From an uncultured archaeon (GTDB taxonomy: Archaea > Asgardarchaeota > Jordiarchaeia > Jordiarchaeales > Jordiarchaeaceae), in contig CAZECW010000020.1 in assembly GCA_964510585.1 (NCBI GenBank), forward strand, positions 30,001 to 62,000: 32,000 nucleotides of DNA, in the 5' to 3' direction. Below the pieces are notes generated by a model, which was not told the DNA's origin, did no database searches, and saw only the letters and a program-made list of their open reading frames with translations. Below are positions 10,705-22,593 of the stretch, in pieces (the first letter of the stretch is position 1; each line of letters begins with the position of its first letter). The position numbers and the translations under genes were made by a program.

Positions 10705-10800
10705 AGCAAGGTGGTGTAGTGGTCAAGCATCGGGGCCTCTGGAGCTCTGATGAGCAGGAGATAGTCCTGGACAGCGGTTCGAATCCGCTCCTTGCTACCA
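10705..10800 (+). tRNA. tRNA-Gln(CTG) with 20-nt intron at 37/38 and encoded CCA
   Basis: Acceptor AGCAAGG/CCTTGCT (A1-U72, typical of archaeal tRNA-Gln); D arm GTGT-AGTGGTCAA-GCAT; anticodon stem GGGGC/GTCCT with CT-CTG-G|A; T arm AGCGG-TTCGAAT-CCGCT; ACCA end. Confidence 0.95.
10743..10762 (+). other. tRNA intron (relaxed BHB motif)
   Basis: Intron AGCTCTGATGAGCAGGAGAT. Central helix CTCT(10737-40)/GGAG(10757-60); bulges GG|A and AT|A; inner helix GCTC/GAGC with one extra unpaired A at 10756. Confidence 0.85.
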
Positions 10801-21601: not shown

Positions 21602-22049
21602 TTTTATACACTAAGTTTGATTGTCCAAACCTCATTTAAATAATTCGGTCACTGAAAAAGCGAAGAAACCACCCCAACCTCTTCTTACACGTCCCACCCT
21701 TAACTTATCAAATTCATAAATAATAGATCTTCACTCAATCACAATCCAATAAACCATATACATATTAAATCCCTCATTTCGCACCCTTTTTTTGCATTTT
21801 TTTGGTTTTTCCAGCTTTAACATTTACTGGGTGTCCCTTCTGGTACAGATTCAGAGCCCACCTAAAATTTATGCGCAAAATTACTTGGCATCTTACGCAG
21901 AACTGCGAATTGCGCCGAAAAAATAAAAATGTGGAAGATTGTGCTGAGTATAGGTTAAAGGATTGAAAAGTAATTTAAAAAAGAAAAATTTAAATGGTAA
22001 ATAAAACAATAATCTAATAATAAAGGGGCATACAAGGGAGGCAATTAAA

Positions 22050-22406
22050 ATGTCCAAAAAACCAGAAAAAAAGAAGAACGATGCAGAATCCAAAGGAGAA
22101 AGATCAGAAGAGAATATGGTTTTTATAGGAAGGAAGCCGACAATGTAGATTCACTTTTGTGTTCTACGTCGATTGAGTTATGTTTTGGCTTGTGTTATCC
22201 AGTTCAATCAAGGCGCTAAAGAGGTTATAATCGTTGCTCGTGGCAGAGCTATTTCTAAGGCGGTGGATGTTGCAGAGATTGTTCGTCAGCGCTTCTTACC
22301 CGAGGGTGTAAAATTGGGTAAGATCACTACAGGCACCGAGATCATTGGTACTGGCGATGATAAGCGTAATGTTTCCACCATCGAGATTCAGTTACTAAAA
22401 GCTTAA
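22050..22406 (+). CDS. albA: DNA/RNA-binding protein Alba, split by a 30-nt intron (exons 22050-22143 and 22174-22406; 108 aa after splicing)
   Basis: Exon 1 encodes MSKK...[11 protein letters not shown] after a GGGAGG SD. Exon 2 encodes [10 protein letters not shown]...[17 protein letters not shown]...RNVSTIEI. Both halves are in the same frame, separated by a TAG-containing insert. Confidence 0.9.
22144..22173 (+). other. Putative BHB-type mRNA intron in alba
   Basis: Central 4-bp helix CGAC(22138-41)/GTCG(22168-71); 3-nt bulges AA|T (22142-44) and AT|T (22172-74); inner helix GTAGA/TCTAC plus CAC-TTTT-GTG. Joining gives ACA A|TG AGT = T-M-S. Confidence 0.85.
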
Positions 22407-22593
22407 AAGGTTTAAAGTAGATTATTTATTCAGAGAGCTTAACATTTTAAATAAGTAATAGTTTGGCCAGGGCTTATTTGGTTTTTTGAGTCGGGCTAGT
22501 CATGTTGTCTCTCCTAAACCTATTTTGTTTATAAAAAGGTATTATGAGTTGCTAAACTGGTTTGATGCAATTACAATGCAGGGATTTGTCTTG

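Follow-up and report, generated by a model that had tools for sequence, protein, structure and literature searches.

The window, that is the whole 32,000-nt stretch of DNA analysed here, carries on its plus strand an alba gene (22050–22406), encoding the chromatin- and RNA-binding protein Alba, that is interrupted by 30 nt (22144–22173) with an in-frame TAG. The initial annotation had taken these 30 nt for a bulge–helix–bulge (BHB) intron in the mRNA of a probable Asgard archaeon. On re-reading the sequence, all of its coordinates and letters for the split gene proved correct, and the organism is indeed an Asgard archaeon (Jordarchaeia/‘Freyarchaeia’). The DNA sequencing runs that contain the locus are hot-spring metagenomes. 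The parts of the gene are as follows.

22036–22041, plus strand: Shine–Dalgarno-like GGGAGG, read from the sequence, 8 nt 5′ of the exon-1 ATG (22050)
22050–22143, plus strand: exon 1 of alba, encoding a lysine-rich N-terminal tail, strand β1 and the first base of a methionine codon
22144–22173, plus strand: 30-nt predicted BHB intron, with an in-frame TAG at 22146–22148
22174–22406, plus strand: exon 2 of alba, opening with TG AGT TAT and ending with TAA at 22404–22406

Exon 1 ends with AAG CCG ACA A at 22143, and the Alba sequence resumes as SYVLACV in the same frame 30 nt after it. An AGGGAGG also precedes the ATG in the orthologues, and no Shine–Dalgarno-like motif was read in front of the TTG at 22173. 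The genome contains four alba genes, the other three of which are uninterrupted. A search of the genome for further copies of the alba intron found none, showing that it does not belong to a repeated or mobile sequence family here, and no Rfam family was found at the locus, as expected.

In the transcript, the two exon–intron boundaries are predicted to come together in a BHB made up of the following elements.

22138–22141, plus strand: 5′ strand of the central helix, CGAC, which pairs with 22168–22171 and sits within the codons CCG ACA
22142–22144, plus strand: 5′ bulge, AAU, with the predicted EndA cut at 22143/22144
22145–22167, plus strand: inner helix h′, GUAGA/UCUAC, with its hairpin; 22145–22149 pairs with 22163–22167
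22168–22171, plus strand: 3′ strand of the central helix, GUCG, the last four helix-forming bases of the intron and the same in all nine intron-bearing orthologues
22172–22174, plus strand: 3′ bulge, AUU, with the predicted cut at 22173/22174

The central helix consists of the pairs C22138–G22171, G22139–C22170, A22140–U22169 and C22141–G22168, and the apical hairpin CAC-UUUU-GUG occupies 22152–22161. Thus two 3-nt bulges lie on opposite strands with a 4-bp helix between them, which is the BHB arrangement; its helix, bulges, inner stem and hairpin had all been named in the initial annotation and were confirmed base by base. The same holds for the weakness of the exon-side helix, in which one C–G pair is followed by two mismatches and then by an A–U and a G·U pair. 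Because this outer exon–exon helix is weak, the motif is of the relaxed HBh′ type rather than the strict hBHBh′ type with helices flanking both sides. The chance of a BHB this strong at one exact pair of boundaries is approximately 5e-5 in this genome. Minimum-free-energy folding retained the hairpin within the intron, missed the BHB and gave the region no exceptional stability (z = −1.33); since the energy model penalises 3-nt bulges, this outcome is uninformative. In the mechanism that we propose, folding of the pre-mRNA would pair the CGAC of exon 1 with the GUCG at the end of the intron, EndA would cleave each bulge between its second and third bases, and RtcB would then join the exons, recreating the methionine codon from A and UG and giving a 108-aa Alba with its β1 strand.

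An intron-containing tRNA gene elsewhere in the window served as a control for this cut rule.

10705–10800 of the window: tRNA-Gln(CUG), with a 20-nt intron at 10743–10762 in the canonical 37/38 position

Its BHB, read from the sequence, has the helix CUCU/GGAG, the bulges GGA and AUA and the inner stem GCUC/GAGC, and the rule used for alba gives the correct junction between positions 37 and 38. In this tRNA motif an additional A separates the inner stem from the central helix.

The genome encodes the enzymes needed by the proposed mechanism, namely an RtcB (578 bits) and a pair of EndA paralogues, 192 and 198 aa long, both of which have an N-terminal and a catalytic C-terminal domain. The EndA genes lie at L121:1468–2046 (minus strand) and L122:1192–1788 (plus strand). 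Asgard archaea have an (αβ)2 EndA with an L1 loop, and relaxed HBh′ motifs need EndA types of broad specificity (PMC5829648). The presence of two paralogues fits the broad-specificity heteromeric type, and since an (αβ)2 EndA cuts relaxed motifs, it suits the weak outer helix of the alba BHB. In Freyarchaeia and Atabeyarchaeia, 92–95% of tRNA genes contain introns, often at non-canonical positions (PMC11291895).

We compared the locus across 11 species genomes of the Jordarchaeales, each of which has an orthologue of 74–99% identity. Nine of the 11 species carry an insert at the same site, of 30 nt in six of them and of 28, 27 and 40 nt in the others. The 30-nt insert is present in the genome under study and in all five other species of its genus, as well as in a JGI metagenome contig of the same genus (L118). 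Three species of the sister family have the 28-, 27- and 40-nt inserts, with different inner stems. The same cut rule applied to all nine inserts gives a full-length Alba each time, including the 28- and 40-nt ones. These two lengths put the exons in different frames, and read-through is therefore ruled out for those two genes. The remaining two species are without the insert and read CC(G/A)ACAA followed directly by TGAGTTATG, which is exactly the predicted junction. The initial annotation had placed the cut after the second bulge base, so that A and TG are rejoined, and it is this very junction that the intron-less relatives possess. The proline codon that contributes to the central helix (22137–22139) is CCG in 9/9 intron-bearing species and CCA in one of the intron-less species.

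A gene tree of the spliced coding sequences, based on no more than 267 columns, groups the two intron-less species as sisters (98/98 support) within the intron-bearing set, which is most simply explained by a single ancient gain and a single exact loss. The intron would then have been present in the ancestor of the order and have been lost precisely at least once. A pattern scan of JGI contigs found no intron-less allele within the genus: the sole contig of the genus that it returned carries the intron, and its five intron-less matches all fall outside the genus, in the sister family or other lineages. These natural intron-bearing and intron-less orthologues offer a means to study intron loss.

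The alignment of the junction region revealed that 97.4% of cells are paired, compared with 18–44% when the 3′ partners are slid. The initial annotation had suggested looking for covariation in CGAC/GTCG among relatives. The central helix turned out to be invariant, and it is the inner helix that covaries instead, with two pairs that switch between A–U and G–C across the families in a compensatory manner. The bulges are always 3 nt long; in relatives the 5′ bulge is AAA, with only its third base varying, the 3′ bulge is AAU or AGU, and the hairpin has either UUUU or GUUA as its loop. Among the intron-bearers, T, A and G occur as the second base of the 3′ bulge but C never does, so that exon 2 always opens with TTG, ATG or GTG (22173–22175).

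Within the genus (seven sequences), 4/30 intron positions vary compared with 40/60 third-codon positions of exon 2 (Fisher p 1.5e-6), and none of the four variable intron positions is paired: two are in the loop, one is the third base of the 5′ bulge and one the second base of the 3′ bulge. Variable sites at the first, second and third codon positions number 0/1/6 in the last 11 codons of exon 1 and 7/4/40 in exon 2. Judged by these substitution patterns, selection on the fold maintains the insert, and the joined frame is the one in which both exons are translated.

Excision of 22144–22173 gives a protein with KPTMSYV at the junction, as the initial annotation had predicted, and this product was compared with its alternatives using a custom HMM derived from 73 Alba proteins that have no interruption. 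End to end (positions 1–88), the match of the spliced product to this model reached 135.4 bits and thus outscored both the read-through product (122.0 bits) and the 77-aa ORF (111.9 bits, positions 13–88), in agreement with the predicted product. Exon 1 alone matched positions 1–13 (E 1.4e-5). With the Pfam Alba profile (PF01918), exon 2 or the 77-aa ORF scored 75.3 bits (cut-off 25) but covered profile positions 12–65 only, whereas an intron-less orthologue covers positions 2–65.

The expectation that standard gene callers would truncate the gene to 77 aa is borne out in a complete Freyarchaeia genome, whose orthologue is annotated as a 78-aa AlbA from exon 2; WXG40211.1 is such a public 78-aa call starting at exon 2, and public annotation calls the intron-less orthologues at 105 aa. 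Other genes in these genomes are probably mis-called too. Intron-aware gene calling is therefore needed for Asgard proteomes. The further suggestion that Alba synthesis depends on the tRNA splicing machinery stands for this paralogue and does not extend to the genome as a whole, given its three uninterrupted alba genes.

Sequencing runs covering the locus were examined as assembled contigs only. DNA run X4 has a 32.7-kb contig that retains the intron. Two runs of one study, X11 and X16, are labelled metatranscriptomic/WGS and contain contigs of up to 85 kb; both libraries are probably DNA. Their samples hold nearly the same strain, and the X11 contig has the intron. A 1,057-nt contig from X16, a library of uncertain type and probably DNA, omits exactly 30 nt at 22144. 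The ligated junction expected at this locus is CCGACAA followed by UGAGUUAU. The intron-less X16 contig represents either spliced mRNA, if the library is cDNA, or a second, very recent exact loss, if it is DNA. Whichever type X16 is, the predicted junction exists in nature.

Run X17 is true RNA-seq, and its contigs are short and come from related strains that are 90–99% alike. In these contigs the intron is still joined to exon 2. No library that is certainly RNA yielded an exon 1–exon 2 junction, and the X17 contigs do not cover exon 1. Two of them contain back-joins. In record 5, a 90-nt contig, 22407–22439 is joined back to 22144–22200, and the acceptor is exactly the first base of the intron. 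The donor of this join is the following feature.

22439, plus strand: back-join donor in the 3′ UTR, directly following a T-rich tract (X17 record 5)

This position may be the 3′ end of the mRNA. In record 7, approximately 22387 is joined back to approximately 22174, with a 4-nt ambiguity (GATT) that is compatible with T22174 as the acceptor. Pairing was sought by eye around 22434–22440 for a second BHB that would account for the join of 22439 to 22144, and none was found; nor was a BHB found that explains the donor ends of the X17 back-joins. Exon circularisation junctions adjoin the cbf5 splice sites in Sulfolobus (Danan et al., PMC3326292). The X17 back-joins are suggestive of circularised cleavage products, with both sites cut in vivo, rather than proof of them.

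Could the insert stay in the mRNA, with translation starting at the TTG, ATG or GTG of exon 2 to give nothing but the 77-aa protein, and with exon 1 decaying as a remnant? An NTG codon is found at the start of exon 2 in all ten intron-bearing sequences, and the 78-aa form is what public annotation calls. We nevertheless regard this as very unlikely, as exon 1 is under coding purifying selection (0/1/6 by codon position) and encodes the β1 strand of Alba, a ribosome-binding site precedes exon 1 with nothing comparable before the internal start, and base-paired sites of the intron change far less than synonymous sites do, a constraint that would be needless for an unspliced spacer. The truncated protein from the exon-2 NTG codon may be made as a by-product. 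Decay of the whole gene, that is a pseudogene broken by a small insertion while three intact paralogues supply the function, is less probable again and hardly credible. The uninterrupted paralogues could make the split copy dispensable, but both exons are under strong purifying selection across the insert-bearing species (7/4/40 by codon position in exon 2), two families have retained the insert at one and the same site, and no accumulation of frameshifts or stops was seen in the exons of the relatives.

Programmed translational bypassing of the phage T4 gene 60 type, in which the ribosome would leave an uncut RNA at the codon preceding the TAG, hop over the hairpin and land where exon 2 opens, is likewise extremely improbable. 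In its favour, the sequence does have a stop directly after the would-be take-off codon, followed by a stable hairpin. However, the take-off and landing codons are neither matched nor conserved (AUG/UUG here, and AAG/UUG, AAG/AUG and AAG/GUG in relatives), and a hop from AAG would yield lysine where every intron-less orthologue has methionine. The conserved feature is instead the 4-bp helix with its two 3-nt bulges, and a contig without exactly the 30 nt exists (X16). That the insert is an artefact of assembly or sequencing has a negligible probability: independent assemblies of nine species genomes contain it, as do the JGI contig L118 and independent DNA runs including X4. Nothing was found in favour of an artefact, and these assemblies refute it.

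Taken together, what was observed here comprises the BHB with its conservation and covariation, intron-less relatives that read the exact junction, and genes for the enzymes, and 22144–22173 is very probably a real mRNA intron in the coding region of alba that is spliced by EndA and RtcB, with cleavage and ligation presumably taking place in vivo. A regulatory role, coupling this alba paralogue to the splicing capacity of the cell, is possible.

Similar inserts were found in further genes of the same genome. In rtcB, 30 nt that include an in-frame TGA are inserted between LPD and AHQGYG (L123:1561–1590; G000:C58:3762–3791). The flanks of this insert, CCCG[ACA]...CGGG[AAG], are BHB-like, and excision by the BHB cut rule brings back the canonical LPDAHQGYGFPIGG motif; if this is true, the RtcB ligase would have to join its own mRNA. 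In the adenosylhomocysteinase gene, a stop-bearing insert of approximately 30 nt lies within the ND..TK..FDN motif, between TK and FDN (L124; G000:C4, around 20571), and in hypD a 28-nt frame-shifting insert, flanked by CGGG[ACA]...CCCG[AAA], lies within the CGxHxH motif (L125; G000:C97:2590–2625). The adenosylhomocysteinase and hypD inserts are candidates for further mRNA introns in this genome. A genome-wide scan combining BHB motifs with ORF fusions was dropped, as 89,074 relaxed motif matches made it too noisy without gene models; in-phase ORF fusions were barely above the out-of-phase control (204 compared with 164 expected, and 485 compared with 386).

Two more alba genes split by a BHB were present among 80 alba loci of other archaea, at sites that are nearby but different. 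An alba gene of a Thermoproteota MAG (L066:1458–1493) has a 36-nt BHB intron 7 nt before the conserved methionine codon, and that of a groundwater (DPANN-like) archaeon (L098:1462–1489) has a 28-nt BHB intron 11 nt before it. Both were apparently gained independently within one short segment of the gene. Alba introns in three phyla thus lie within approximately 13 nt of one another. Relative to the methionine codon, the sites are +1, −7 and −11 nt (Asgard, Thermoproteota and DPANN respectively), and the gains appear to have been independent. We lean, with some reserve, towards the view that the alba intron is one of a genome-wide set of EndA-spliced mRNA introns and that the stretch encoding GKKPxM is a hot spot for intron gain. 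If this is true, protein enzymes would splice mRNA as a regular part of gene expression in an Asgard lineage, one in which nearly all tRNA genes and, to judge from the candidates above, several other protein genes are interrupted likewise. With a conserved and selected intron in alba, the use of the tRNA machinery for splicing mRNA would reach the prokaryotes most closely related to eukaryotes, and the alba junction provides a compact test substrate of approximately 60 nt for the specificity of an Asgard EndA.

The initial annotation could match the alba intron to no described case, and our full-text literature searches likewise found no report of an alba intron or of mRNA BHB introns in Asgard archaea. 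According to a study of 2020 (PMC7714728), cbf5 is, besides that study's own 5′ UTR case, the sole gene for which a BHB intron in mRNA is on record. The papers searched contain no BHB intron within an archaeal coding region other than that of crenarchaeal cbf5. The introns of the tRNA genes of Freyarchaeia and Atabeyarchaeia (PMC11291895), together with that of the tRNA-Gln in the window, share with the alba intron the 4-bp helix, the two 3-nt bulges, the intron hairpin, the size class of 20–40 nt and the presumed enzymes. The alba intron differs from them in that its host is an mRNA and in that its outer helix is a codon-limited pairing between exons rather than a tRNA stem.

The closest likeness in a protein gene is the cbf5 intron of Crenarchaeota (Aeropyrum, Sulfolobales and Desulfurococcales), which is also a short BHB intron inside a coding region (Watanabe 2002; Yoshinari 2006; Yokobori 2009, PMC2738675). 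Both introns are tied to a hetero-oligomeric EndA of broad specificity and have been gained and lost with exact junctions among relatives, and the exon circularisation junctions beside the cbf5 splice sites (PMC3326292) resemble the alba back-joins in X17. The host gene here is alba, and the intron is thus not that of the crenarchaeal cbf5 gene and site; the TruB_N match in this genome begins at profile position 17 and has no internal stop. As the gene, the site and the phylum (Asgard) all differ from those of cbf5, the alba intron would be of independent origin. Splicing of cbf5 was proven by RT-PCR and in vitro cleavage, whereas the RNA support for alba is indirect.

The BHB intron in the HVO_1309 mRNA of Haloferax volcanii (PMC7714728) is similar to that of alba in being an EndA substrate within an mRNA. 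It differs in that it lies in the 5′ UTR, where it interrupts no reading frame, and in that it has been verified experimentally. In eukaryotes, HAC1/XBP1 mRNA is spliced by Ire1 cleavage, with ligation by RtcB in animals. A passage in PMC5829648 refers to RtcB as acting on HAC1 (its ref. 5). That system depends on Ire1 and twin stem-loops and is regulated by stress, unlike alba, and no homology of the introns is implied. What it has in common with the model proposed for alba is the removal of a short intron from a coding mRNA by proteins only, independently of the spliceosome, with joining of the tRNA-ligase type.
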